Positions 12,500 through 52,964 of a DNA stretch of 64,000 nucleotides are shown here, piece after piece. Position numbers and translations under genes: made by a program. This DNA comes from Candidatus Nomurabacteria bacterium (GTDB lineage: Bacteria > Patescibacteriota > Minisyncoccia > Phycocordibacterales > UBA918), in contig JACKGG010000002.1 of assembly GCA_020632035.1 (NCBI GenBank), forward strand, positions 24,095-88,094, written 5' to 3'. The first letter of the stretch is position 1, and each line of letters starts with the position of its first letter. The notes under the pieces are model-generated. The model was not told the origin of the DNA and made no database searches. It was given only the letters and a program-made list of their open reading frames with translations.

Positions 12500-12653
12500 G
12501 TGTCTTGTGATGGAGTCGGTTATTACATAATCAATACTCGTTTTGGATGGATTGTTTCGAAACTCACAATCCATCTCAAAAAAGCTTCGACTCGTGCAAG
12601 GCTTTTCAAAGAAAAGCTGCACCCCGAGGCACAGCTTTCACTCCGTTCATTTG
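12500..12653 (-). repeat. Possible degenerate tRNA-3'-linked element downstream of tRNA-Leu(CAA)
   Basis: Minus-strand sense shows a terminator hairpin right after the tRNA, then ttgaaaag…cacgagtcgaa (partial complement of the T-loop), an A/T hairpin ggattgtgagtttcgaaacaatcc, and ccgactccatcac (degenerate copy of the tRNA T-loop/3' stem). Weak match to the family described in findings. Confidence 0.25.
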
Positions 12654-12735
12654 TGCCTCGAGAGGGAGTCGAACCCTCAAGCCTTACGGCATACGATTTT
12701 GAGTCGTACGTGTATACCAATTCCACCATCGAGGC
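12654..12735 (-). tRNA. tRNA-Leu (anticodon CAA), long variable arm
   Basis: Manual fold: acceptor GCCTCGA/TCGAGGC; anticodon stem TACGA/TCGTA with loop CTCAAAA; variable arm ATGCCGTAAGGCT; T-arm GAGGG-TTCGACT-CCCTC. Confidence 0.8.
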
Positions 12736-13200: not shown

Positions 13201-14103
13201 ATGGAAAACAAAAAACCAAAAGCAATTGCAGTAGTCGGGCCGACCGCCTCTGGCAAGACTTCCCTGTCTATTCAGCTTGCAAAAAGATTCAATGGTGAGG
13301 TTATTTCAGCAGATTCTAGACAAGTCTATACCGGACTTGATCTAGGCACTGGAAAAGTCACTGTAGAGGAGATGGATGGAGTACCTCATCACCTATTGGA
13401 CATAATGGACCCAAAAGGTGTATACAATGCGGCTGAATTTGAACTCGATGCTACTACTGCTATCTTAGACATACATAGTCGGGGCCGAGTACCAATAATC
13501 GCTGGTGGTACTTTCTTTTATCTAGATATGCTCCGTGGCAAACACCAAGTCGCCTCTGTTCCTCCAGATAATAACTTTCGCCTTACCCTAGCTTCTTGCA
13601 CGACTCCAGAGTTATTTGAAAAACTCAAGGAACTAGATATCAGTCGAGCTGAAACGATAGATGAACACAATAGACCCCGTCTAATTCGAGCGCTTGAAAT
13701 AATCAACACTCTTGGTCATGTACCTAAAGTCGAGAAAAATGAGTCTCCTTATGACTGGCTAGTGATTGGTGTTGATATCGATAAAGTAAGACTGCACGCA
13801 AATATCCATACTCGACTAGCCGAAAGACTTAGCGCAGGCATGATAGACGAAGTCTGCGAACTACACAAAAACGGCCTGACTTACGAAAGGATGCACGAGC
13901 TGGGCCTAGAGTATAGATATATTGCCATGTACTTAGAACAAAAACTCAAATACGAAGTTATGGTAAAAGATTTGGAAATAAAAATTAGGCAATACGCCAA
14001 AAGGCAAATGACTTGGCTCAGGAGAGATGATGAAATAGAGTGGTTCAAACCGACTAAGCCCGAAAAGATTTTTACTCGAGTAGAGAAATTCCTCAAGCAA
14101 TAG
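13201..14103 (+). CDS. miaA: tRNA dimethylallyltransferase
   Basis: P-loop AVVGPTASGKTSLSIQLA and …SADSRQVYTGLDLGTGK… are typical MiaA motifs. Confidence 0.9.
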   Translation: MENKKPKAIAVVGPTASGKTSLSIQLAKRFNGEVISADSRQVYTGLDLGTGKVTVEEMDGVPHHLLDIMDPKGVYNAAEFELDATTAILDIHSRGRVPIIAGGTFFYLDMLRGKHQVASVPPDNNFRLTLASCTTPELFEKLKELDISRAETIDEHNRPRLIRALEIINTLGHVPKVEKNESPYDWLVIGVDIDKVRLHANIHTRLAERLSAGMIDEVCELHKNGLTYERMHELGLEYRYIAMYLEQKLKYEVMVKDLEIKIRQYAKRQMTWLRRDDEIEWFKPTKPEKIFTRVEKFLKQ

Positions 14104-14160
14104 AAACAGTTGACCTACCCCAGCATTTCCAATACTATGTTGCGATAAACAAATATCCAC

Positions 14161-14231
14161 GGGTCTATAGTTTAGTGGTAAAATTTCGGTCTCCAAAACC
14201 GACGTCCGAGGTTCGAGTCCTCGTGGACCCG
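14161..14231 (+). tRNA. tRNA-Trp (anticodon CCA)
   Basis: Acceptor GGGTCTA/TGGACCC; anticodon stem TCGGT/ACCGA with loop CTCCAAA; T-arm CGAGG-TTCGAGT-CCTCG; discriminator G. CCA not encoded. Confidence 0.8.
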
Positions 14232-14232
14232 C

Positions 14233-14542
14233 ATAAAACATTACGTCCTAATGCGTCTAGCATTGGGGCGTTTATGTTTTACGGTACTAAGAGGACTCGA
14301 AAAGGTTGCCTGATATTTTGTGACGTAGGAGCAAAAATATCGACAACCTGTACTGAATCTGTAAGATTCGAGTCCTCGTGGACCCGCATAAAACATTACG
14401 TCCTAATGCGTCTAGCATTGGGGCGTTTATGTTTTACGGTACTAAGAGGACTCGAAAAGGTTGCCTGATATTTTGTGACGTAGGAGCAAAAATATCGACA
14501 ACCTGTACTGAATCTGTAAGATTCGAGTCCTCGTGGACCCGC
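14233..14542 (+). repeat. Two perfect tandem copies (155 bp each) of a tRNA-3'-end-linked structured element (family I), directly after tRNA-Trp
   Basis: Units 14233-14387 and 14388-14542 are identical. Each has an A/T hairpin (aaaacat…atgtttt), an anti-T segment gaggactcgaa, the core gaaaaggttgcctGATATTTTGtgacgtaggagCAAAATATCgacaacctgtactGAATCtgtaaGATTC, then gagtcctcgtggacccgc, a copy of the tRNA-Trp T-loop and 3' end. Overlapping track ORFs here are artefacts. Confidence 0.85.
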
Positions 14543-14546
14543 GAGC

Positions 14547-14582
14547 AACAAAACCAACCTGAATAAGGTTGGTTTTGTTTTG
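14547..14582 (+). terminator. Intrinsic terminator after the tRNA-Trp repeat array
   Basis: Stem caaaaccaacc / ggttggttttg followed by TTTTG. Confidence 0.6.
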
Positions 14583-14589
14583 CAAGCGA

Positions 14590-14722
14590 GGGCTACGAGG
14601 ACTCGAAAGCCGGAACCGGTACACAAGCCGACGAGCTTGCGAGGAGGGCTTGTCGGTGAGGCGGGGTCGAGAAAAATTTTCGTAGAAAATTTATTCGTGA
14701 CCGAGTCCTCATGGACCCATAA
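14590..14722 (+). repeat. Third, divergent tRNA-Trp-linked unit (family II architecture)
   Basis: Contains the anti-T segment gaggactcgaaag, a GC-rich hairpin, an A/T hairpin gagaaaaattttc-gta-gaaaatttattc, then gtgaccgagtcctcatggaccc, a degenerate copy of the tRNA-Trp 3' end. Confidence 0.6.
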
Positions 14723-14733
14723 GCCTAATCACT

Positions 14734-15816
14734 TTATTTATCGTAGACAGAAAAATGTGGAGCTGTTATATATCCAACAACTTGCACATCCTCTGTTCGC
14801 AGGCGACCTTTAGCATCTTTTACTAATGCATCAGCTTCTGCTTGAGTAGCGACCTCATACTTTGCAGTTAGACCATTTCTATAAGCTGCTTTTATAACAC
14901 TGACTATATCATCTGTACTTTTCATACCACCTTCGACTCCGTAATCCACACATGTACCATTTTGATGACAAGGATTTTTATGATTTACCCCAGGTGTTGG
15001 AGGCATAGCTTCAGTAACTCGAGCACCAACTACTGTTTTTGATACTTCTGCATGAAAATTAACTAACTTATCCAGAGTTATGGGAGAGACTGAACAAGTA
15101 TTTGAATTCTTGCAAGGCACACCGGCATCTGCCAGAGAACGACAGCCATTAAAACAGGCATCTTCCAATCCTGGCGTAATAGGTGGCTTAGGAGGGTCCA
15201 CACCATTTGGGCAATCCCAATGTTCTTCTTCGGTCTCTCCTCTTGCAACACTATATGTGCAATTACTCGGGAGACATTTCCAAATATTTCCCACTAAAGT
15301 ACAACCCATAGCTACCAGATCCCTGTTTTGTTGGAAAACTTTACTTGGTGGGACAGTATCATTCTGTTCAATACATTCAAGCGTAGACCATGGTCTATTA
15401 TTTAATTCACCTTCTCCACCAAGGAGTAAAGACTTCATAAGAGTGTCAACCAGCAGCCAAGCTCCCATAACAATTAGTATACCTATCAGAGCATTAGTCA
15501 TTTTTTGCTTTGCTTCAGTTTTAGCTGACGTATTACCGCCTGAAGTGACCAAGCTAAATCCTGCCCAAGCAGTAGTTATGGCAAATATCACCAGCATAAC
15601 TCCGATCAACCAGCCTAGGATATTTTCAGCCAACACCACTAAATGACAAGAATTACAGTCTGTTCCTTCGCAAGGAATTAATCCTCGGTCAACTTCCTCA
15701 GTCAGCACTTCTTGAGGCGGGTCTTCAACTGGAGCAGGTTCTTCTATTGGAGCAGAGAGCACGAAACCAGGTAAGACAATCAAACTAAACATCATTATAA
15801 AAATTGCCTTTTTCAT
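14734..15816 (-). CDS. Secreted Cys-rich protein with C-terminal two-helix pilin-like membrane domain (VirB2/TrbC-like topology)
   Basis: Signal peptide MKKAIFIMMFSLIVLPGFVLSAP, then a roughly 200-aa Cys-rich region. C-terminus (…ENILGWLIGVMLVIFAITTAWAGF…ALIGILIVMGAWLLVDTLMK) matches the two-hydrophobic-helix motif of the 31322-33793 paralog cluster. Confidence 0.7.
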   Translation of the reverse strand: MKKAIFIMMFSLIVLPGFVLSAPIEEPAPVEDPPQEVLTEEVDRGLIPCEGTDCNSCHLVVLAENILGWLIGVMLVIFAITTAWAGFSLVTSGGNTSAKTEAKQKMTNALIGILIVMGAWLLVDTLMKSLLLGGEGELNNRPWSTLECIEQNDTVPPSKVFQQNRDLVAMGCTLVGNIWKCLPSNCTYSVARGETEEEHWDCPNGVDPPKPPITPGLEDACFNGCRSLADAGVPCKNSNTCSVSPITLDKLVNFHAEVSKTVVGARVTEAMPPTPGVNHKNPCHQNGTCVDYGVEGGMKSTDDIVSVIKAAYRNGLTAKYEVATQAEADALVKDAKGRLRTEDVQVVGYITAPHFSVYDK

Positions 15817-15936: not shown

Positions 15937-16019
15937 GCGTCGGTACTCAAGCGGTCAACGAGGGCAGACTGTAAATCTGCTGACTTATGTCTACGAAGGT
16001 TCGAATCCCTCCCGGCGCA
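15937..16019 (+). tRNA. tRNA-Tyr (anticodon GTA), long variable arm
   Basis: Acceptor GCGTCGG/CCGGCGC (one G-U pair); anticodon stem GCAGA/TCTGC with loop CTGTAAA; variable arm TGACTTATGTCTAC; T-arm GAAGG-TTCGAAT-CCCTC (one mismatch). Confidence 0.7.
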
Positions 16020-16024
16020 CAATA

Positions 16025-24472: not shown

Positions 24473-24558
24473 GCCCGGGTGGTGGAATCGGTAGACACGA
24501 GGGACTTAAAATCCCTTGCCTTTTAAACGGCGTGCGGGTTCAATTCCCGCCCCGGGCA
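24473..24558 (+). tRNA. tRNA-Leu (anticodon TAA), long variable arm
   Basis: Acceptor GCCCGGG/CCCGGGC; anticodon stem AGGGA/TCCCT with loop CTTAAAA; T-arm CGGGTTCAATTCCCG; discriminator A. Confidence 0.8.
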
Positions 24559-24561
24559 CCG

Positions 24562-24987
24562 AAATAATGAGTCAGACCTTGTGTCTGGCTTATTATTTTG
24601 GTCAAGGGAATTGAAAAGGTTAGTCAGATATTTTGGAGCTTGCGAACAAAATATCGACAACCTGTACTGATCCTGTAAGGATCAATTCCCGCCCCGGGCA
24701 CCGAAATAATGAGTCAGACCTTGTGTCTGGCTTATTATTTTGGTCAAGGGAATTGAAAAGGTTAGTCAGATATTTTGGAGCTTGCGAACAAAATATCGAC
24801 AACCTGTACTGATCCTGTAAGGATCAATTCCCGCCCCGGGCACCGAAATAATGAGTCAGACCTTGTGTCTGGCTTATTATTTTGGTCAAGGGAATTGAAA
24901 AGGTTAGTCAGATATTTTGGAGCTTGCGAACAAAATATCGACAACCTGTACTGATCCTGTAAGGATCAATTCCCGCCCCGGGCACCG
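24562..24987 (+). repeat. Three tandem 142-bp copies of a tRNA-3'-end-linked structured element (family I), directly after tRNA-Leu(TAA)
   Basis: Units 24562-24703, 24704-24845 and 24846-24987 are essentially identical. Two identical 60-aa track ORFs 142 bp apart confirm the period. Each unit has a terminator-like hairpin (aataatgagtcagac…gtctggcttattatttt), an anti-T segment gggaattga, the core gaaaaggttagtcaGATATTTTGgagcttgcgaaCAAAATATCgacaacctgtactGATCCtgtaaGGATC, then aattcccgccccgggcaccg, a copy of the tRNA-Leu T-loop and 3' end. Confidence 0.85.
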
Positions 24988-25103
24988 AAAGTAGAAGTCG
25001 GAACTGGTTTCCGGCTTTTACTTTTGATTGTAATCGTCAGATCAGTTTTACATTGAAATGATCATAGGATAAATGCAAGTCAACGCACATATTCCAACAT
25101 ATT

Positions 25104-26105
25104 TTATTTCATTAACTCATTTCCAATTTTTTCAAAAAAATCTAACACCGGGATATTGTACTCAGCCTGCCATAAGTGTGACCATACATTTCGGCTACTT
25201 TGTGACAATAGAACGTAAGCGCCATCATTAATATACCCTTGTTGCACAAGCATTGCTTCAGCTTTTTTTTGACACGAAATATCTACAATTCCATCATCAA
25301 CACTATGAAACATTTTGAATGGTATTTTCTGATTTGAACTTACAGTCTCCAAACTTCTATCTCTAAAATGAGCATTAGGTAAACATGCACCCGCCTCAGT
25401 AATCTGTTTGTTGGTCTCCCGATCAAATCCAGCGCCCTTAGCACTCTCTCGCAATGAAAGTGAAGGATCACAATCGAAATAGGTTCCATACGGATCACCA
25501 GATGCTACAGGGGCAAATGCTGTAATAAGATTATCAAAGTGTGTTGCGGTTAGAATTGCCATATATCCACCAGTTGACTCTCCAGTGAGGAACGTGTTTA
25601 TAGAACTTCCGACTGGTCGCTTACTAGGGACAATCTCAGTGATTACTTGTTCAATAAATGGTAGGTCCACATTATCTGTCCTACCTTCTACAAGTGTCGC
25701 ATCCCATCGCTTTCCGCAAACAAGACCGCCGGAATCAGTTACAACATCATTTGTCGATTCTAGTAGAAATACAGCAAATCCTCTTTCTACCGCTAAATCA
25801 CTAAAATCCACTTGTGGTTTCACTAGTCTAAGACTTTCATAACACCATTGGGTATAATCCCCTCCTCCACCATGCATTGCTATAACGGCTCCCTTTGTCC
25901 ATTTTTCTGGCCCCTTCCATAAAACAGATCGCTCTCGTCCATCAACGTGAATAGTGATCTTTTCAAAACCCCGGTCTACACAACTTTGTTCATTCAGTAA
26001 GATCGACTCCTCATTTGATACCGATCCATCTCGAATCCGTGAAACTACGTTCAACACGATCAGGATCAAAAAAATGATTATCGTGGTCTTGATAAGCTTT
26101 CTCAT
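25104..26105 (-). CDS. Secreted alpha/beta-hydrolase (esterase / PHB-depolymerase-like)
   Basis: N-terminal signal/TM segment; oxyanion-hole-like HGGGGDYTQW and nucleophile elbow GESTGGYMA (G-x-S-x-G). Confidence 0.7.
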   Translation of the reverse strand: MRKLIKTTIIIFLILIVLNVVSRIRDGSVSNEESILLNEQSCVDRGFEKITIHVDGRERSVLWKGPEKWTKGAVIAMHGGGGDYTQWCYESLRLVKPQVDFSDLAVERGFAVFLLESTNDVVTDSGGLVCGKRWDATLVEGRTDNVDLPFIEQVITEIVPSKRPVGSSINTFLTGESTGGYMAILTATHFDNLITAFAPVASGDPYGTYFDCDPSLSLRESAKGAGFDRETNKQITEAGACLPNAHFRDRSLETVSSNQKIPFKMFHSVDDGIVDISCQKKAEAMLVQQGYINDGAYVLLSQSSRNVWSHLWQAEYNIPVLDFFEKIGNELMK

Positions 26106-26163
26106 ATAATAATTTTACCACGGGTAAAACTTTGCTAGTTGGACTATGTAAATGTATTTAGTT

Positions 26164-26451
26164 CTAATTCAATTTCTTATATAAAGCACCTGTCAAAACC
26201 AATACGACAACCCCTGTCATTAAAATCATGTGCGGATTTTCGTTAAAATACGGTATTTGATCTATAACTTTTTCAAACCCATAAAACGTAGCGACCAGAC
26301 CAAAGGAAGAAAGAAGGACAAATATCATCGGAAACCTCGCAAAAGCTGAATCTCTCACGGTACTAAACTTTCCGGTCAGCGACTCGCTGATTTTTTCAAT
26401 TTTCTTTATTTCAGCTTCTGCTCTTTCCTTCTGACTTTGTAATAAATTCAT
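26164..26451 (-). CDS. Hypothetical small membrane protein (2 TM)
   Basis: 95-aa ORF with an amphipathic N-terminus and two hydrophobic helices (MIFVLLSSFGLVATFYGF, LMTGVVVLVLTGALY). Confidence 0.45.
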   Translation of the reverse strand: MNLLQSQKERAEAEIKKIEKISESLTGKFSTVRDSAFARFPMIFVLLSSFGLVATFYGFEKVIDQIPYFNENPHMILMTGVVVLVLTGALYKKLN

Positions 26452-26539
26452 ATTCTAAATTATAGCAATTAATTTGAAATTAGTGATTAATTACCTTGTA
26501 ATATGTATTTAATTATTGTAAACTCAGCCCACAAAACAT

Positions 26540-26703: not shown

Positions 26704-26786
26704 GCGCAGGTGGCGAAATTGGTATACGCGCTAGTTTTAGGCACTAGTGGAGCAATCCGTGGAGGTTCAAGTCCTCTCCTGCGCAC
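26704..26786 (+). tRNA. tRNA-Leu (anticodon TAG), long variable arm
   Basis: Acceptor GCGCAGG/CCTGCGC; anticodon stem CTAGT/ACTAG with loop TTTAGGC; variable arm TGGAGCAATCCGTG; T-arm GGAGG-TTCAAGT-CCTCT. Confidence 0.8.
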
Positions 26787-26815
26787 TAAGAAAACCCACT
26801 TTGGTGGGTTTTTGT

Positions 26816-26946
26816 GTGCTCAGGAAGCAAAGTCTGGAAGACTTTGTGTGAGGGTTTGAAAAGGTTGCCAGTTATTTTGGAGCTTGTGAACAAAATAACG
26901 ACAACCTGTACTGAACTCGTAGAGTTCAATTCCTCTCCTGCGCACA
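26816..26946 (+). repeat. Single copy of the tRNA-3'-end-linked structured element (family I) after tRNA-Leu(TAG)
   Basis: A terminator hairpin (aaaacccac…gtgggttttt) at 26787-26815 precedes the unit. The unit has gagggtttgaaaaggttgccaGTTATTTTGgagcttgtgaaCAAAATAACgacaacctgtactGAACTCgtaGAGTTC, then aattcctctcctgcgcaca, a near-copy of the tRNA-Leu(TAG) T-loop and 3' end. Both stems differ from loci A and B only by compensatory changes. Confidence 0.8.
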
Positions 26947-30641: not shown

Positions 30642-31181
30642 CTAGTTTGTCACTGGAGGTTCAATACTTCTATCAACGGGACCTGGGTTTCCTCCTCCGG
30701 TGCCAGGACCAGGATTACTTCCTCCAGTGCCGGGGCCTGGATTACTTCCTCCAGTACCTGGACCAGGGTTTTCACCTCCTGTGCCGGGACCGGGGTTTTC
30801 ACCTCCTGTGCCGGGACCGGGGTTTTCACCACCGGGGATACTCGTATCAGGTAATACAAAAGCATCTCCACAGTCTGGTCCGCTTGGGTTATTGGCACAA
30901 TCTAGTTGTTTATCAAGACCAAAAGTAGAAGTAGCAATACTCAATATAGCAAAAGCTGAAAGCATCACCACTAGGCCAATTATCCCAAAAGTGATATGCT
31001 TTACTCCCTGCCCCCTCGCTGTTTCGTTGGCAGAATTAACAAAGTATTCTACACAACCCCAAACAAAAACAAGAAAAGCTACCGCACTAAGAAGAGCGAT
31101 AGTAGGAAACAATATAATGTCATTAAATTTATCTACAAATTTAGCAGCTTCTTCGGTCGCTTGTTGTTGAGGTGTTGCCAT
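30642..31181 (-). CDS. Two-helix pilin-like membrane protein (VirB2/TrbC-like topology) with C-terminal (GENPGPGTG)x6 repeat tail
   Basis: Two hydrophobic helices (ILFPTIALLSAVAFLVFVWG…/…TFGIIGLVVMLSAFAILSIA) separated by a short polar loop, then six nine-residue Gly/Pro repeats. Confidence 0.7.
   Translation of the reverse strand: MATPQQQATEEAAKFVDKFNDIILFPTIALLSAVAFLVFVWGCVEYFVNSANETARGQGVKHITFGIIGLVVMLSAFAILSIATSTFGLDKQLDCANNPSGPDCGDAFVLPDTSIPGGENPGPGTGGENPGPGTGGENPGPGTGGSNPGPGTGGSNPGPGTGGGNPGPVDRSIEPPVTN
30683..30843 (-). repeat. In-frame 27-bp tandem repeat (6 copies) encoding GENPGPGTG
   Basis: cctcctccggtgccaggaccaggattactt… and related units repeated head-to-tail; the track protein shows GENPGPGTGG x3 then GSNPGPGTGG x2 and GGNPGP. 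Confidence 0.85.
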
Positions 31182-39934: not shown

Positions 39935-40087
39935 ATGCTTAATCTTCACGGACCGCCCGCCAAGGGCAAACTGGCTTCGTCCAAGGTAAATTTTTATTTT
40001 AAACGCGGCGACAACGACAACCTGCGCGACGACGGCGGCCACCTGGGCGACGACGGCGGCCACCTGGGCGATATTATCTCAGACTGA
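39935..40087 (+). CDS. Candidate small ORF (50 aa) with good RBS; contains the GC-rich tandem repeat
   Basis: AGAGGGA 5 nt before ATG. MLNLHGPPAKGKLASSKVNFYFKRGDNDNLRDDGGHLGDDGGHLGDIISD. Below the track's length cut-off. A 17-aa ORF (39808-39861, MRREKRFIARQSRSETT) with RBS GGGAGA lies upstream. Confidence 0.3.
   Translation: MLNLHGPPAKGKLASSKVNFYFKRGDNDNLRDDGGHLGDDGGHLGDIISD
40028..40069. repeat. 21-bp GC-rich perfect tandem direct repeat (2 copies)
   Basis: gacgacggcggccacctgggc occurs twice head-to-tail; about 75% GC in an otherwise AT-rich intergenic region. Confidence 0.85.
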
Positions 40088-46643: not shown

Positions 46644-47813
46644 ATGTCTGAGCAAATTATTACCGGTATCGATGTTGGAACTTACCACGTAAAAGTGGCA
46701 GTTGCTCGTATTCCTAAAAATGCCGGTCCCAATGCTAAGCCAGAGATTATCGGCACCGGATTGGCAGAAAGCCGTGGTTTGAAAAGTGGCTATATTATGA
46801 ACGAAGCAGAAGTGGCAAGAAGTATTAAGAGTGCTCTGACTCAAGCCGAGAAAAGTGCCAAACTATCTATCAAAAAGGCTCATGTCGCCATCGGCAGTAT
46901 TGGTCTTGAAGAAGTCTACTCGCACGGAGAAATCATTCCCTCGAGAGCAGATTCAGAAATCATTCCCTCTGACCTAGAAAAAGTAATGACCGACAGTGAA
47001 GAAAGAATAATGGATCATATTCCAAATCGACGGATTTTGCACAGTATACCGCTAAGGCACTTGGTAGACGGCGCCGAGGTACTAGGGCGACCACAGGGCT
47101 TAAAAGGGACCAAGCTCGAGGTAGACAGCCTTTTTATTACCACCTACGAACAACACGTAAACGATCTTATTCGTACTATTGAAAGCCAAGGAGTATTTGT
47201 CGAGGATATTATTGCTTCCCCGCTGGCGGCTAGTTTTGTTATGTTGTCGAAAGCGCAAAAGAGGGCCGGCTGTATACTCACTAACATTGGAGCAGAAACA
47301 ACTTCCATCGTAGTGTTCGAAGACTCTACCCCAATCTCTTTGAAGATTTTCCCGATTGGATCGAATGACATAACCAACGACATTGCGCTTGGTCTACGGA
47401 TCCCTCTTGAGGACGCTGAAAAGGTAAAACGCGGGGCCATGACCAGTGCCACCTACTCAAAGAAACGGCTGGATGAAATAATCCACGAACGACTACGAAT
47501 GATCTTTGGACTGATTGATGGTCATTTGAAGAAAATAAAAAGAGATGGTCTCCTACCAGCAGGCATAATCCTAACCGGAGGTGGAGCCAATGTAACAGGT
47601 ACGGTTGAGGTGGCAAAAGCTGCACTAGAACTGCCGGCCCGCACAGCCACTCTTGATATTGGTAAAAATCTTAAAATCAGAGACGCCTCGTGGGCAGTGG
47701 CTTATGGTCTATGCATGTGGGGTGCGATCGATACTGAAGAAACATCCGCTCTTGGCATAGTGAAACACACTAGACGCAATATACTTTCTTGGTTCAGCCA
47801 ATTCCTCCCCTAG
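46644..47813 (+). CDS. ftsA: Cell division protein FtsA
   Basis: Actin-fold N-terminus (ITGIDVGTYHVKVAVA), …GGGANVTG… phosphate-2 region; followed by ftsZ. Confidence 0.85.
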   Translation: MSEQIITGIDVGTYHVKVAVARIPKNAGPNAKPEIIGTGLAESRGLKSGYIMNEAEVARSIKSALTQAEKSAKLSIKKAHVAIGSIGLEEVYSHGEIIPSRADSEIIPSDLEKVMTDSEERIMDHIPNRRILHSIPLRHLVDGAEVLGRPQGLKGTKLEVDSLFITTYEQHVNDLIRTIESQGVFVEDIIASPLAASFVMLSKAQKRAGCILTNIGAETTSIVVFEDSTPISLKIFPIGSNDITNDIALGLRIPLEDAEKVKRGAMTSATYSKKRLDEIIHERLRMIFGLIDGHLKKIKRDGLLPAGIILTGGGANVTGTVEVAKAALELPARTATLDIGKNLKIRDASWAVAYGLCMWGAIDTEETSALGIVKHTRRNILSWFSQFLP

Positions 47814-47864
47814 AGACTAAATATCATTAACGATATAAATAATACTACTATGATGATTTCTTAC

Positions 47865-48000
47865 AAACGTCTACCTATCATCAATAATATAAAAAATACT
47901 ACTACAGTGATCGGTTATAAACGTCTACCTATCATCAATAATAAGAATCTTACTTCAGTAGTAAATAGACCAAGCTACCTATCCTTGATGATAGATAGTA
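47865..48000. repeat. Direct and inverted repeats in the AT-rich ftsA-ftsZ spacer
   Basis: aaacgtctacctatcatcaataata at 47865-47889 and 47919-47943 (25-bp perfect direct repeat); partial inverted copy ctacctatccttgatgatag near 47972. Confidence 0.8.
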
Positions 48001-48197: not shown

Positions 48198-49439
48198 ATG
48201 GAACAAATAAGAACAGATGTTGAATCATTCGCACGGATCCGCGTGGTCGGTGTGGGAGGTTCTGGAAAGAACGCCGTTAACCACATGGTGTCATCCAAAG
48301 TACGTGGAGTTGAATTTATTGCTATAAACAGTGACGCTCAAGATCTGCATCACTCACTAGCCAAGAAAAAAATTCACATTGGTAAAAATCTTACTCGTGG
48401 TCTTGGCGCAGGTGGAAACCCAGAGATGGGACGTCGCGCTGCAGAAGAAACGAGAGAAGAAATAAACAACTCTATCAAGGGTTCTGACATGATCTTCATT
48501 ACTGGCGGTATGGGTGGTGGAACTGGAACAGGTTCAGCACCTGTAGTAGCCAAAATTGCTCGCGAGAGCGGAGCTCTAACAGTAGGTGTAGTTACAAAAC
48601 CGTTTCTATTTGAAGGACAAGAAAGGATGCGTTTGGCGCTAGCCGGGATCGAAGAACTAAAGCAAGAAGTTGATGCTCTTATTATTGTCCCTAACGATCG
48701 TCTACTAGCTATCGTAGATAAAGAGACTACTGTTCAAAGTGCCTTTGAACAATGTGACAATATCCTAAAACAAGCGGTAGAGGGTATCTCAGACCTCATA
48801 ACCATGCCAGGTATTATCAACGTTGACTTTGCTGACATTCGTAGTGTTATGGAAAACGCTGGTTCCGCCTTGATGGGTGTTGGTATATCCTCTGGAGAAA
48901 AGCGAGCCGAAGAAGCAGCCAGACAAGCCATCAATTCCCCTCTTCTTGAGGTTTCAATCACTGGTGCAAAGGGTGTACTTTTCGCTATTGCTGGTGGAGA
49001 GGATCTTGGAATGCTTGAGATTCAAGATGCAGCCAGAGTCATAACAGAATCGATTGATCCACATGCACGAGTAATATTTGGTGCCATTAAGGATGACAAA
49101 CTTAAGAAGAATGAACTTAAAGTTACTGTAATCGCAACTGGTTTTCCAGAAGAGTCAGAAAATGGTGGAAATTATAATATTGCTCGACGTATTCCTTCGA
49201 CACCAGACCCCGTCGTGAATGAGACAGTATCAAATTCTACCAACAAAGGAAAAATCTTTAATTCTTTACAAAAGAAGCCAGACGTATCTAAAGCTCCAGA
49301 ATCTGTCTCTGGCAACAAGGATATAAGCTCGGAAACACCGAAGCGAGATCCTAAACCAGTAGACCCAGCAGACGACACAGAAGATGATGATGACTGGGGA
49401 GCTGTTCCAGCTTTCTTACGACGTTCAAAATTGAAATAA
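48198..49439 (+). CDS. ftsZ: Cell division protein FtsZ
   Basis: Tubulin signature [14 protein letters not shown]7 loop region, acidic C-terminal linker and conserved C-terminal peptide ([11 protein letters not shown]). Confidence 0.95.
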
Positions 49440-49645
49440 AATATAATTCTGTCATAACTGGCTCAATGCTAAATATCAGCTCCTCAGTCAGTATGAATGG
49501 GGTGAGACTGTCGCAAGACCTTGCCAGACAATTTACAAATACTTGAAGTAAAGTGTCGAAAAGGTGTACCGTCTAGTCGAGAAGGTACCGGCATTTCTAC
49601 GTAGAAGTAAACCTAAATAGTTTACTTAGAAGTAAGAACAAACAA

Positions 49646-52503: not shown

Positions 52504-52575
52504 GGTCCCATCGTCTAATGGTTAGGACGTCAGGTTTTCATCCTGGAAATCGGGGTTCGATTCCCCGTGGGATCA
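52504..52575 (+). tRNA. tRNA-Glu (anticodon TTC)
   Basis: Acceptor GGTCCCA/TGGGATC; D-arm GTC-TAATGGTTAG-GAC; anticodon loop TTTTCAT; T-arm CGGGG-TTCGATT-CCCCG. Confidence 0.8.
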
Positions 52576-52960
52576 CAAAACGAGACTTCGTCTCGACACA
52601 AGGAGCGCGCCGAAGGCGCGCGAGAAGAAGAAAGTGGAAAAATACCCTGTCGCGTAGCGACGGATTGGGACGGGACGGGTGCGAGAGTACTTAGTAGATT
52701 TTGCACGAAGTGCAAAAATATACTTAGTAACTCGTGACCACAAGTACTTTTGTCTCAAAAATAATTCAGGGCCCATGTTTTCGTTCGTGATCCAAGAGAA
52801 AGACGCTAGTGCGTCTTTTGTGGGAATCGAACCAGCGGAGTCATCCTGCACGGAGCGAAGCGAGTACAGAAGTCGAGGCATGTCCCGCGGCACTTCTTAT
52901 TTTGTGAGGTACGAAACAAAATAAGTTAGTGACCGTCAGGATCATTCCCCGGGGGATCAC
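52576..52960 (+). repeat. tRNA-Glu-linked structured element(s) (family II architecture) ending in a copy of the tRNA-Glu 3' end
   Basis: Several hairpins (cgagacttcgtctcg; gcgcgccgaaggcgcgc; tttgcacgaagtgcaaaa). Anti-T segment gggaatcgaacc at 52822-52833. A/T hairpin cttattttgt-gaggtacgaa-acaaaataag. Then gtgaccgtcaggatcattccccgggggatcac at 52929-52960, which copies the tRNA-Glu T-loop and 3' end (attccccgtgggatcac). Confidence 0.65.
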
Positions 52961-52964
52961 TAAG

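Follow-up and report, generated by a model that had tools for sequence, protein, structure and literature searches.

Structured modules behind the tRNA genes of Patescibacteria: an undescribed family with a covarying three-way junction

A previously undescribed family of small structured modules is found behind tRNA genes in a 64-kb stretch of a Candidatus Nomurabacteria bacterium genome (64,000 nucleotides of contig JACKGG010000002.1, here called the window). The tRNA genes concerned are intact, and their modules are found between the T-loop and the gene's original terminator. Along the tRNA strand, a tRNA 3' end (T54/55 to C74, now in use by the working tRNA) is followed by the module's own terminator-like hairpin, by a segment complementary to the T-loop and T-stem (the antisense stretch), by a core with a three-way junction, and by a second tRNA 3' end. 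The modules are insertions, present or absent at orthologous tRNAs, and their fold is selected on the tRNA-sense strand. With about as much confidence as doubt, we read them as non-autonomous, site-specific integrative modules that target the tRNA T-loop, with the fold as their cis-acting part.

The array behind tRNA-Trp shows the arrangement most clearly (coordinates in Table 1). The gene encodes the discriminator and one C of its 3' end and not the CCA, and its last 21 nt (14212-14232, T54 to C74) constitute the first copy of the repeat, X1. Tandem Repeats Finder (TRF) reports a 155-bp period over 14212-14542, with 2.1 copies at 100% identity. A sequence-only reading of this region had described two base-perfect 155-bp units after tRNA-Trp, each with a hairpin, a segment antisense to the T-loop and a final tRNA 3'-end copy, and all of these have been recovered in place. 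The antisense stretch GAGGACTCGAA is the exact reverse complement of the T-loop and the 3' strand of the T-stem of tRNA-Trp, and the closing copy TTCGAGTCCTCGTGGACCCGC matches 14212-14232 without difference. In the Trp units, A-rich joining nucleotides lie between the antisense stretch and the hairpin P2. The same reading proposed a core of two hairpins. Both stems are there, but they belong to a three-way junction, as its arms P2 and P3, and a third helix, P1, closes this junction; in P1 the antisense stretch pairs with the downstream tRNA copy. The motif quoted for the first hairpin is that of the tRNA-Leu(taa) copies, while in the Trp units the second arm reads CAAAAATATC, with one extra A. 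The last part of the region, 14543-14582, is the terminator-like hairpin that opens a third Trp unit, which was missing from the earlier description and belongs to a second core family (family II).

The evidence for the fold comes from alignment A1, which holds 108 distinct family-I copies and in which pairs were counted for the three-way junction. In this alignment, 91.5% of the cells pair, and both-sided changes are seen in 20 of the 30 pairs. The covariation score is 0.326 against 0.118 for shuffled alignments (0 of 500 shuffles reach it), and it is 0.05–0.07 in a control in which the partners were slid by 1–3 columns. Covariation is free in P3 and in the outer portion of P2, and P1 covaries with tRNA identity, as at the pair formed by T-loop position N59 (AU 29, CG 29, UA 28, GC 6). 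The inner part of P2 is invariant in A1 because the search pattern fixed it; among the model-based matches, P2a covaries (ACCUUG/CAAGGU, GGGUUG/CAACCC, CUUUUG/CAAAAG and CCCGAUUG/CAAUUGGG). Compensatory changes between loci include GATATTTTG/CAAAATATC versus GTTATTTTG/CAAAATAAC and, in P3, GAATC/GATTC versus GATCC/GGATC versus GAACTC/GAGTTC. The single strands GAAR before P2 and RUACNGA before P3, as well as the GUA loop of P3, are conserved. The earlier suggestion that the stems are preserved by compensatory substitutions therefore holds on the 108 copies, and the selected secondary structure which it proposed is strongly supported by the covariation, refined to a three-way junction to which fuller copies add the helix P0 and the small hairpin hp2.

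The strand on which the structure is read can also be determined. In P2 and P3, G·U pairs outnumber A·C mismatches by 38 to 9, and the fold is therefore read on the tRNA-sense strand. The plus strand of the Trp unit folds with -64.2 kcal/mol (z = -7.75, ViennaRNA) and its minimum-free-energy fold is the comparative structure, and the minus strand gives -55.0 kcal/mol. The topology is unchanged when DNA folding parameters are used. Fuller copies contain, between hairpin 1 and P1, the helix P0, whose antisense strand pairs with the 3' strand of the acceptor stem, and hp2, a small sequence-conserved hairpin that splits the antisense stretch (for example ACAGUCUGGGAGACUGU). Of 111 copies, 26 have 9 or more consecutive P0 pairs, compared with 2 of 111 controls with a shuffled acceptor strand. 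In the tRNA-Leu(tag) unit of the window both P0 and hp2 are degenerate, and the Trp and Leu(taa) units are reduced versions.

The copied part of the tRNA has well-defined limits. Its first nucleotide is T54/55 in family-I units and C56 in family-II units, and it most often ends exactly at position 74, with a modal length of 21 nt. Repeats of 20–25 nt, from T54/55 to 74, flank the inserts, and ARAGORN still recognizes the tRNAs. Of 119 distinct cases, 77 have an exact junction. The clearest comparison is provided by L005, a Nomurabacteria bin about 84% identical to the window, which has the same Cys/Leu(taa)/Lys/Leu(tag) tRNA cluster (loci outside the window are numbered with the prefix L). In L005 the terminator directly follows tRNA-Leu(taa) and there is no unit, while the orthologue of that terminator in the window follows the third unit. 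Therefore, n x 142 bp have been inserted between the 3' region of the tRNA and its native terminator. In about 15 genomes with the syntenic cluster, occupancy varies at every one of the four tRNAs, with a unit in some genomes and none in others.

A few distal copies have an unusual junction. In L019, L035 and L187, and by eye also in L021, L075 and L084, 1–2 extra nucleotides are present between TCGA (A58) and N59. These nucleotides could mark the true junction between element and target. A junction hotspot at A58|N59 was set aside, since the at least three strictly scored copies and the few more seen by eye, among 119, are too few.

Two comparisons bear on how the modules move. The Leu(tag) unit of the window is identical to that of L005 at 137 of 137 positions from hairpin 1 to P3, whereas the distal tRNA copy matches at 20 of 21, the native terminator at 35 of 41 and the neighboring gene at 247 of 306 positions, and the flanks are 81–93% identical. 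This pattern fits a recent exchange with a crossover in the distal copy. Secondly, a 77-nt core is 100% identical behind tRNA-Leu(taa) in the window and behind tRNA-Pro(tgg) in a Kaiserbacteria bin, while the hairpin, the antisense stretch and the tRNA copies of this pair differ.

Based on these observations, we propose that the near-universal T-loop, or its immediate vicinity, is where the module recombines with the tRNA gene. The module would bring its own tRNA 3' end and terminator, so that the essential tRNA would stay intact and the host unharmed, and with the target regenerated, further modules could enter the same site. Base-perfect tandem copies would be products of local slippage or unequal exchange at the 21-nt repeats. 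The three-way junction and its closing helix are the only conserved part and would therefore act as the cis-acting site for machinery encoded elsewhere. A more tentative addition, by analogy with the integron attC site and CTXphi attP, is that the module may be read as a folded single strand; this form is preferred because the antisense stretch restores the tRNA target as a duplex beside the junction. Modules may also spread between related genomes by ordinary homologous exchange, with the tRNA on the left and the 21-nt copy on the right serving as homology arms, which would explain why identity stops where the tRNA stops.

Several points weigh against this proposal. No recombinase, transposase or reverse transcriptase has been found in or beside any module, no integrase-bearing element was seen at the same sites in about 240 loci, and the phage, plasmid and viral collections gave no matches. 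For a move to a new tRNA, the antisense stretch and the tRNA copy must change in step, which the proposal does not account for. A circular double-stranded intermediate of 140–170 bp would be very stiff. The G·U bias and the covariation suit an RNA equally well as a folded DNA, the nearest analogue in Escherichia coli is a processed RNA, and the full identity of the Leu(tag) unit to L005 could stem from selection instead of recent exchange.

The strongest rival, a serious one although we consider it less likely, is that the modules are tRNA-trailer RNAs. Transcription would read through from the strong tRNA promoter past hairpin 1, and a processed, tRNA-like small RNA would be selected. The antisense stretch would pair with the downstream tRNA copy and, in fuller copies, P0 and P1 would resemble an acceptor stem stacked on a T stem, so that RNase P and RNase Z, together with CCA addition, could release an RNA of roughly 110–130 nt with the three-way junction as its business end. 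Selection would act on this RNA, or on a cis effect on maturation or termination of the upstream tRNA, and DNA mobility would be secondary, through homologous exchange via the tRNA sequence. A covarying structure on the tRNA strand is what such an RNA would show, and the P0 runs give it a tRNA-like closing stack. The tRNA-Leu(tag) site is also occupied in many of the syntenic clusters examined, its unit is fully identical between genomes with flanks of 81–85% identity, and no mobility enzyme was found in the loci examined. However, a terminator-like hairpin stands before every unit and there is no convincing promoter within. Any closing sequence would serve an RNA, yet it is always the 3' end of the neighboring tRNA with a sharp limit at position 74, which points to an insertion mechanism. 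The presence and absence among close relatives, the perfect tandem copies, the many decayed copies and the two unrelated cores within one flanking architecture also speak against a trailer RNA. The same is true of the drift of the distal copy, which is mostly uncompensated in the antisense stretch.

This drift has been followed in 19 clean cases in which the distal copy is off the real tRNA by 1–2 substitutions within P1. Among the drifted positions there are 12 at which the antisense stretch can pair with the tRNA version alone and 4 at which its only partner is the drifted copy. The sample is small, and it suggests that upkeep of P1 is not strong once the unit has been inserted. Many copies are low-scoring or have shortened or drifted tRNA copies.

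The E. coli analogue is the set of 178-bp repeats at tyrT/tyrV (rtT/RttR), which lie as 3.1 tandem copies right after the tRNA on the tRNA strand. In E. coli K-12 (NC_000913.3, 1286700-1287250; L244), each tyrV-distal unit has GGGGAAGGAT, antisense to the copied 3' end of tRNA-Tyr, and the units also contain the T-arm-like AAGGTTCGAC. A tRNA 3'-end copy closes each unit and the annotated RttR ends exactly at the copied CCA, which favors the trailer RNA. Unlike the modules described here, the E. coli copy starts at A58 and includes the CCA, and one unit overlaps a small ORF (tpr). There is no homology between the two: the covariance model for family I (R1) has no match in the tyrT region, and no Rfam family except tRNA scores above threshold in the window. 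To our knowledge, the E. coli repeats are confined to one enterobacterial tRNA-Tyr locus, while the modules span at least 31 isoacceptors.

The search for a mobilizing enzyme near the modules has been negative. A regular expression for the tyrosine-recombinase box II gave zero hits in 1486 open reading frames (ORFs) of at least 150 aa from about 240 loci; this screen is crude and would miss serine recombinases and HUH enzymes. Ten neighbors of the window modules were compared with Pfam (MiaA, pilin-like, ParB, IF-2, rhodanese-domain and VIT-family proteins, and four without a match), and nothing relevant to mobility was found among them. Upstream of the arrays lie tRNA promoters and housekeeping genes, with MiaA before tRNA-Trp and IF-2 before the Cys/Leu cluster. 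A type IV secretion pilin domain (PF18895, E = 1.1e-7) is encoded by the minus-strand gene at 14734-15816, which converges on the Trp array.

A second rival, which we judge rather improbable, is guide-directed insertion. The antisense stretch would choose the tRNA gene with whose T-loop and T-stem it can pair, the core would be a scaffold for an enzyme supplied in trans, and the tRNA copies would be a long target duplication that arises on insertion. Retargeting would then need guide mutations only, in keeping with the identical core behind two tRNAs whose antisense stretch and both tRNA copies differ together. N59 covaries fully with the antisense stretch, which follows the real tRNA and not the drifted distal copy. 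The constant duplication length of 20–21 nt, the layout common to two core families and the lack of a cis-encoded enzyme also agree with a guide. On the other hand, no candidate enzyme has been found, a 21-bp target duplication is unusual, and a guide with full complementarity to the adjacent sequence would be mostly sequestered in P1. The evidence cited is equally compatible with an attachment-site (att) type element that carries its own tRNA copy. If the antisense stretch does set the target, the modules would be of practical interest as a compact programmable insertion device.

A bolder form of the integrative reading, to which we give little weight, is a cassette system whose cassettes need not encode an enzyme, in which a structured nucleic acid, read as folded single-stranded DNA or as RNA, serves as scaffold and address label and is used by a conserved protein of the candidate phyla radiation (CPR). 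An antisense guide would match the T-loop and T-stem, and the protein would insert the module, sometimes with a passenger gene, at the T-loop of the matching tRNA gene. Such a system would be programmable and tRNA-targeted, with a logic like that of integrons and bridge-RNA elements while unrelated to both. A fold acting as a programmable address label would be new in kind.

The family is large. A gapped-pattern search gave more than 119 loci in species-representative genomes and at least 120 in metagenome contigs. A profile census gives at least 272 copies in about 240 loci. Among the loci listed, family-I modules stand behind at least 31 tRNA isoacceptors. Among the matches listed, most named genome bins belong to Patescibacteria (Paceibacteria, Kaiserbacteria, Nomurabacteria, Saccharibacteria, Minisyncoccia and others), and the few matches in other taxa are due to chance or probably come from mis-binned contigs. 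Units lie 40–100 nt past the tRNA genes, and the previous tRNA copy lies 50–100 nt upstream in 119 of the 134 copies with an intact tRNA 3' copy. The search of other genomes and metagenomes that the sequence-only reading had called for, made here with the gapped pattern and a profile, has thus found abundant relatives in CPR genomes.

The collections searched gave no match to the family. Rfam 15 at gathering scores finds only tRNAs in the 64-kb window, with none of the rtT, hammerhead, twister, hairpin, group I intron or tRNA-like families, and at an E-value limit of 10 it gives only chance microRNA-type matches, far below threshold, in 14100-14760. BLAST against phage and plasmid collections gives no match to the modules. 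Nothing on these elements was found in the full text of the published literature, and such units go unmentioned in a recent paper on CPR tRNA introns. The view that this is an uncharacterized family of tRNA-linked mini-elements agrees with the census and with these searches.

Family II has a core of roughly 105 nt, ending ...GGGGTCGAGAACACTTAGTAGATT..AATATACTTAGTGATTCGTGAC|C. Its order is terminator, anti-acceptor stretch, a small hairpin AAGCAAACTGCTTTGCTT, anti-T-arm stretch, core, and a tRNA copy from C56. It also occurs in L030, L039, L048, L011, L037, L065, L070 and others.

Five of the eight tRNA genes in the window bear modules, with 1–3 units each (Table 1). The invariant 16-mer CGACAACCTGTACTGA occurs 6 times, compared with 0.38 expected by chance, namely in the two Trp units, the three tRNA-Leu(taa) units and the one tRNA-Leu(tag) unit, and the recurrence of the same core after two other tRNAs is thus as first described. 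The Leu(tag) unit consists of hairpin 1, a degenerate anti-acceptor stretch, hp2 (caaagtctggaagactttg), P1 and the core, followed by an X copy that is mismatched at one position. The Leu(caa) unit has P2a UUUUG/CAAAA, the joining strand GUAUUGA and a decayed X copy. The second tRNA-Glu unit has GGGAATCGAAC, antisense to the T-arm, and the decayed copy GATCATTCCCCGGGGGATCAC at its end, and with 52601-52760 as the query, BLAST gives relatives at 15 or more other loci. The orphan core is flanked by two protein genes with no tRNA nearby and resembles the ACCTTG/CAAGGT subfamily; in the syntenic locus L074 the matching stretch has no model match. Beyond the listed units, the window contains no family-III nested element and no extra family-II signatures.

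Table 1. Module-bearing tRNA genes, modules and module parts in the window
Feature	Position	Strand	Basis
tRNA-Leu(caa) with divergent, partly decayed family-I unit	12505-12735	-	R1, 42.1 bits, E = 3.6e-9
tRNA-Leu(caa) gene	12653-12735	-	
tRNA-Leu(caa), unit match	12505-12600	-	
tRNA-Trp(cca)	14161-14232	+	ARAGORN; Rfam tRNA model, 66.3 bits
Trp family-I unit 1, 155 bp	14233-14387	+	TRF; covariance model R1, 99.4 bits
Unit 1, hairpin 1, long, scored terminator-like	14234-14281	+	
Unit 1, antisense stretch GAGGACTCGAA (5' strand of P1)	14291-14301	+	
Unit 1, P2, long interrupted hairpin	14303-14349	+	
Unit 1, joining strand GTACT	14350-14354	+	
Unit 1, P3, short hairpin GAATCT-GTA-AGATTC	14355-14369	+	
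Unit 1, tRNA 3'-end copy X, TTCGAGTCCTCGTGGACCCGC, overlaps P3	14367-14387	+	
Trp family-I unit 2, identical to unit 1	14388-14542	+	TRF, 100% identity; R1, 99.4 bits
Unit 2, antisense stretch GAGGACTCGAA	14446-14456	+	
Unit 2, P3	14510-14524	+	
Unit 2, X copy TTCGAGTCCTCGTGGACCCGC	14522-14542	+	
Third Trp unit, family II (different core, family-I architecture)	14543-14719	+	Sequence; BLAST relatives in L108, L060, L028
Family-II Trp unit, terminator-like hairpin	14547-14579	+	
Family-II Trp unit, degenerate antisense of whole tRNA 3' end	14586-14607	+	GAGGACTCGAA at 14597-14607
Family-II Trp unit, core II	14608-14701	+	
Family-II Trp unit, decayed X copy CGAGTCCTCaTGGACCCa	14702-14719	+	
tRNA-Leu(taa) with three perfect 142-bp family-I units	24473-24990	+	R1, 87.5 bits, three times
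tRNA-Leu(taa) gene	24473-24560	+	
tRNA-Leu(taa), repeat array	24540-24990	+	TRF
tRNA-Leu(taa), last X copy, adjoining native terminator	24966-24990	+	
tRNA-Leu(tag) with one fuller family-I unit	26704-26944	+	R1, 90.4 bits
tRNA-Leu(tag) gene	26704-26786	+	
tRNA-Leu(tag), unit	26787-26944	+	
Orphan weak family-I-like core, GACCTTGCCAG...CGAAAAGGTGTACCG	49502-49601	+	R1, 24.5 bits, E = 2.4e-4 over window
tRNA-Glu(ttc) with two family-II-type units	52504-52961	+	Sequence; BLAST
tRNA-Glu(ttc) gene	52504-52576	+	
tRNA-Glu(ttc), first unit	about 52577-52760	+	
tRNA-Glu(ttc), second unit	about 52790-52961	+	

Arrays have been observed well beyond the window. Two to three family-I units are present at 20 of 250 occupied sites in independent assemblies, and contig AACY023826642.1 has 3.5 perfect 171-nt copies; therefore tandem arrays are not peculiar to the window assembly. 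An assembly artefact or a meaningless local tandem duplication is so improbable that it hardly needs weighing. Perfect short repeats are hard for short-read assembly, and the copy numbers in the window (2 and 3) could be wrong, but the arrays stand at 20 independent sites and single copies with the same architecture are present in more than 200 loci. The independent assemblies thus speak against such an artefact. Identical neighboring units are probably the result of slippage or unequal exchange between the 21-nt direct repeats. Other arrays are mixed: the Trp array has the order I, I, II, two subfamilies stand at one tRNA in L076, different cores are found in L119, L083 and L157, and L129 is also among the mixed or gene-bearing loci. 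Mixed arrays require independent insertions at one tRNA. The earlier comparison of the arrays with serial integration scars applies to these, whereas for the base-perfect arrays slippage or unequal exchange is the simpler explanation.

Rare units hold genes between the previous tRNA copy and the 3' module. The cargo consists of a CMP/dCMP-deaminase-like ORF (L083), small ORFs (L119, L112), a 152-aa ORF (L157) and a 453-aa secreted-looking ORF (L129), and none of these cargo ORFs is recombinase-like. The statement that the units carry neither integrase nor cargo holds, with the refinement that rare copies do bear genes; no recombinase motif was found in the loci. In L157 and L119, a 7–8-nt piece of the tRNA 3' end recurs just before the terminator of the 3' module, which suggests that the cargo entered a pre-existing unit.

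The same piece tells against a further rival, in which the modules are functionless scars, attL/attR remnants of islands or prophages after cargo loss. The direct repeats of the tRNA 3' end that flank each unit and the rare gene-bearing copies would be expected of such scars. However, a covarying core of roughly 75 nt has been kept in at least 272 copies across distant CPR lineages, and there are no integrase-bearing relatives at the same sites and no phage or plasmid similarity. We therefore regard deletion scars as very improbable.

A small non-coding element that begins AAGCAAGCTTTCT...GAACTGCATTC is nested right after TGT in some family-I P3 loops and, inverted, inside P2a after GGTTGT, and both placements disrupt the fold. 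It has been seen in L034 (about 1900-1960), L006, L118 (6115 on, minus strand; 1059-1212) and L100 (308-466), and it is not present in the window.

The integrative reading places the modules close to two known kinds of element, and they behave like both a T-loop integrative element and an integron cassette, yet they fail the defining features of both, as they have no integrase, autonomous partner, R/L boxes, IntI or attI. Like integron cassettes, they form arrays of short units at a fixed site, many without an ORF and a few with one gene, and the proposed insertion would regenerate the entry site. An attC site is likewise an imperfect inverted repeat of 60–140 nt whose one-strand structure is kept more than its sequence. 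Unlike cassettes, the modules enter the tRNA T-loop and not attI, no IntI or attI lies beside the arrays, and the module brings a terminator and a replacement gene end. Their boundary is GTTCRA (the T-loop) and not GTTRRRY, and the R/L boxes (GTTRRRY/RYYYAAC) are not found; the inner strand ends TCGAA, followed by the A-rich joining nucleotides. The three-way junction with its strongly conserved joining strands also differs from the simple bulged hairpin of attC.

Islands and prophages that integrate into tRNA genes, and the integrase-less derivatives of these (CIMEs), target the 3' part of the tRNA as well, with a boundary in the T-loop and a direct repeat that runs to the tRNA 3' end. These elements, too, supply the sequence that restores the tRNA, they accumulate in tandem at one tRNA, and both empty and occupied sites exist. 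The modules differ in being units of 100–170 bp with no integrase nearby. Unlike CIMEs, they have no autonomous, integrase-bearing partner among the about 240 loci or in the phage, plasmid and viral collections. One conserved module also serves at least 31 tRNAs; its fold covaries, and it carries the target internally in antisense.

For the putative single-stranded substrate, CTXphi-type phages provide an analogy. In these, two inverted target copies in one strand fold to a duplex mimic of the site, the enzyme is not encoded by the element, and tandem arrays are common. The analogy concerns the proposed mechanism; the target of these phages is dif, their enzymes are XerCD and they are several kilobases long. 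REPIN/RAYT elements and miniature inverted-repeat transposable elements (MITEs) are also short non-coding hairpin repeats, numerous near gene ends and presumably mobilized by a protein encoded elsewhere, but they have no fixed gene target, no copy of a neighboring gene end and no three-way junction. The left end of the module (hairpin 1) varies between loci; there are therefore no terminal inverted repeats, which argues against two recognized ends such as those of MITEs, REPINs and palindromic elements derived from IS200/IS605.

CPR bacteria have very small genomes. The modules point to an undescribed mobilization route in these bacteria or to a new class of tRNA-linked small RNA, and they bear on DNA exchange among streamlined symbionts. 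They also matter for the annotation of CPR tRNA loci, where decayed tRNA ends and extra terminators are easily misread, and for the old unexplained tyrT/RttR repeats of E. coli, which have the same layout.

Several other identities have been considered and rejected. A weak sigma-70 match in the core (TCGACA-16-TAAGAT) is taken as a coincidence and not as the module's own promoter because its inner positions covary as a stem. The module is not a pseudo-tRNA with an insert, as non-palindromic T-loops (TTCGAGT) face their reverse complement (ACTCGAA) upstream and not a direct copy. Nor is the antisense stretch a primer-binding site: in L020 (one copy, by eye) it stops at position 74, without a complement of the CCA. 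The hammerhead ribozyme has CUGANGA between stems I and II, GAAA between stems II and III, and an NUH cleavage site. The modules have GAAA and CUGA in the wrong order and spacing, no stem between GUA and CUGA, no NGA after CUGA and no match to a hammerhead or other ribozyme in Rfam. A bridge RNA of the IS110 type was rejected, as there is no adjacent recombinase-type ORF and the target-related stretches pair with each other and do not lie in internal loops. Four 16-mer matches in IMG/VR, with no R1 match and no tRNA, are chance and do not indicate a viral origin.

Some minor observations concern the tRNA loci. Window tRNA genes read at their 3' end (for example 14231-14232, 16018-16020 and 26785-26786) encode the discriminator and one C, without CCA. 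The exception is tRNA-Leu(taa), in which CC is encoded and CCA still is not; the copies in other loci mostly end at C74. At 25030-26500, between the Leu(taa) array and tRNA-Lys, the window has two minus-strand ORFs without a Pfam match (25104-26105, 333 aa; 26164-26451, 95 aa). L005 lacks them and has only about 200 nt there, which makes this a second insertion/deletion difference in that tRNA cluster. In the chromosome-level sequence OZ244961.1 (L007, 5920-6060, minus strand), a tRNA-Cys cut off after T54 runs directly into a family-I core with a distal GC hairpin in place of the tRNA copy. This odd variant is rearranged, and an intact tRNA-Cys lies just downstream.

The window contains three further tandem repeats. 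One at 30677-30830 has a 27/54-nt period and overlaps ORFs at 30642-31181, and another at 40004-40071 is a 21-nt GAC-rich repeat. The third, at 47822-47943, is an AT-rich 54-nt repeat in 2.3 copies, located between the ORFs 46644-47813 and 48198-49439.

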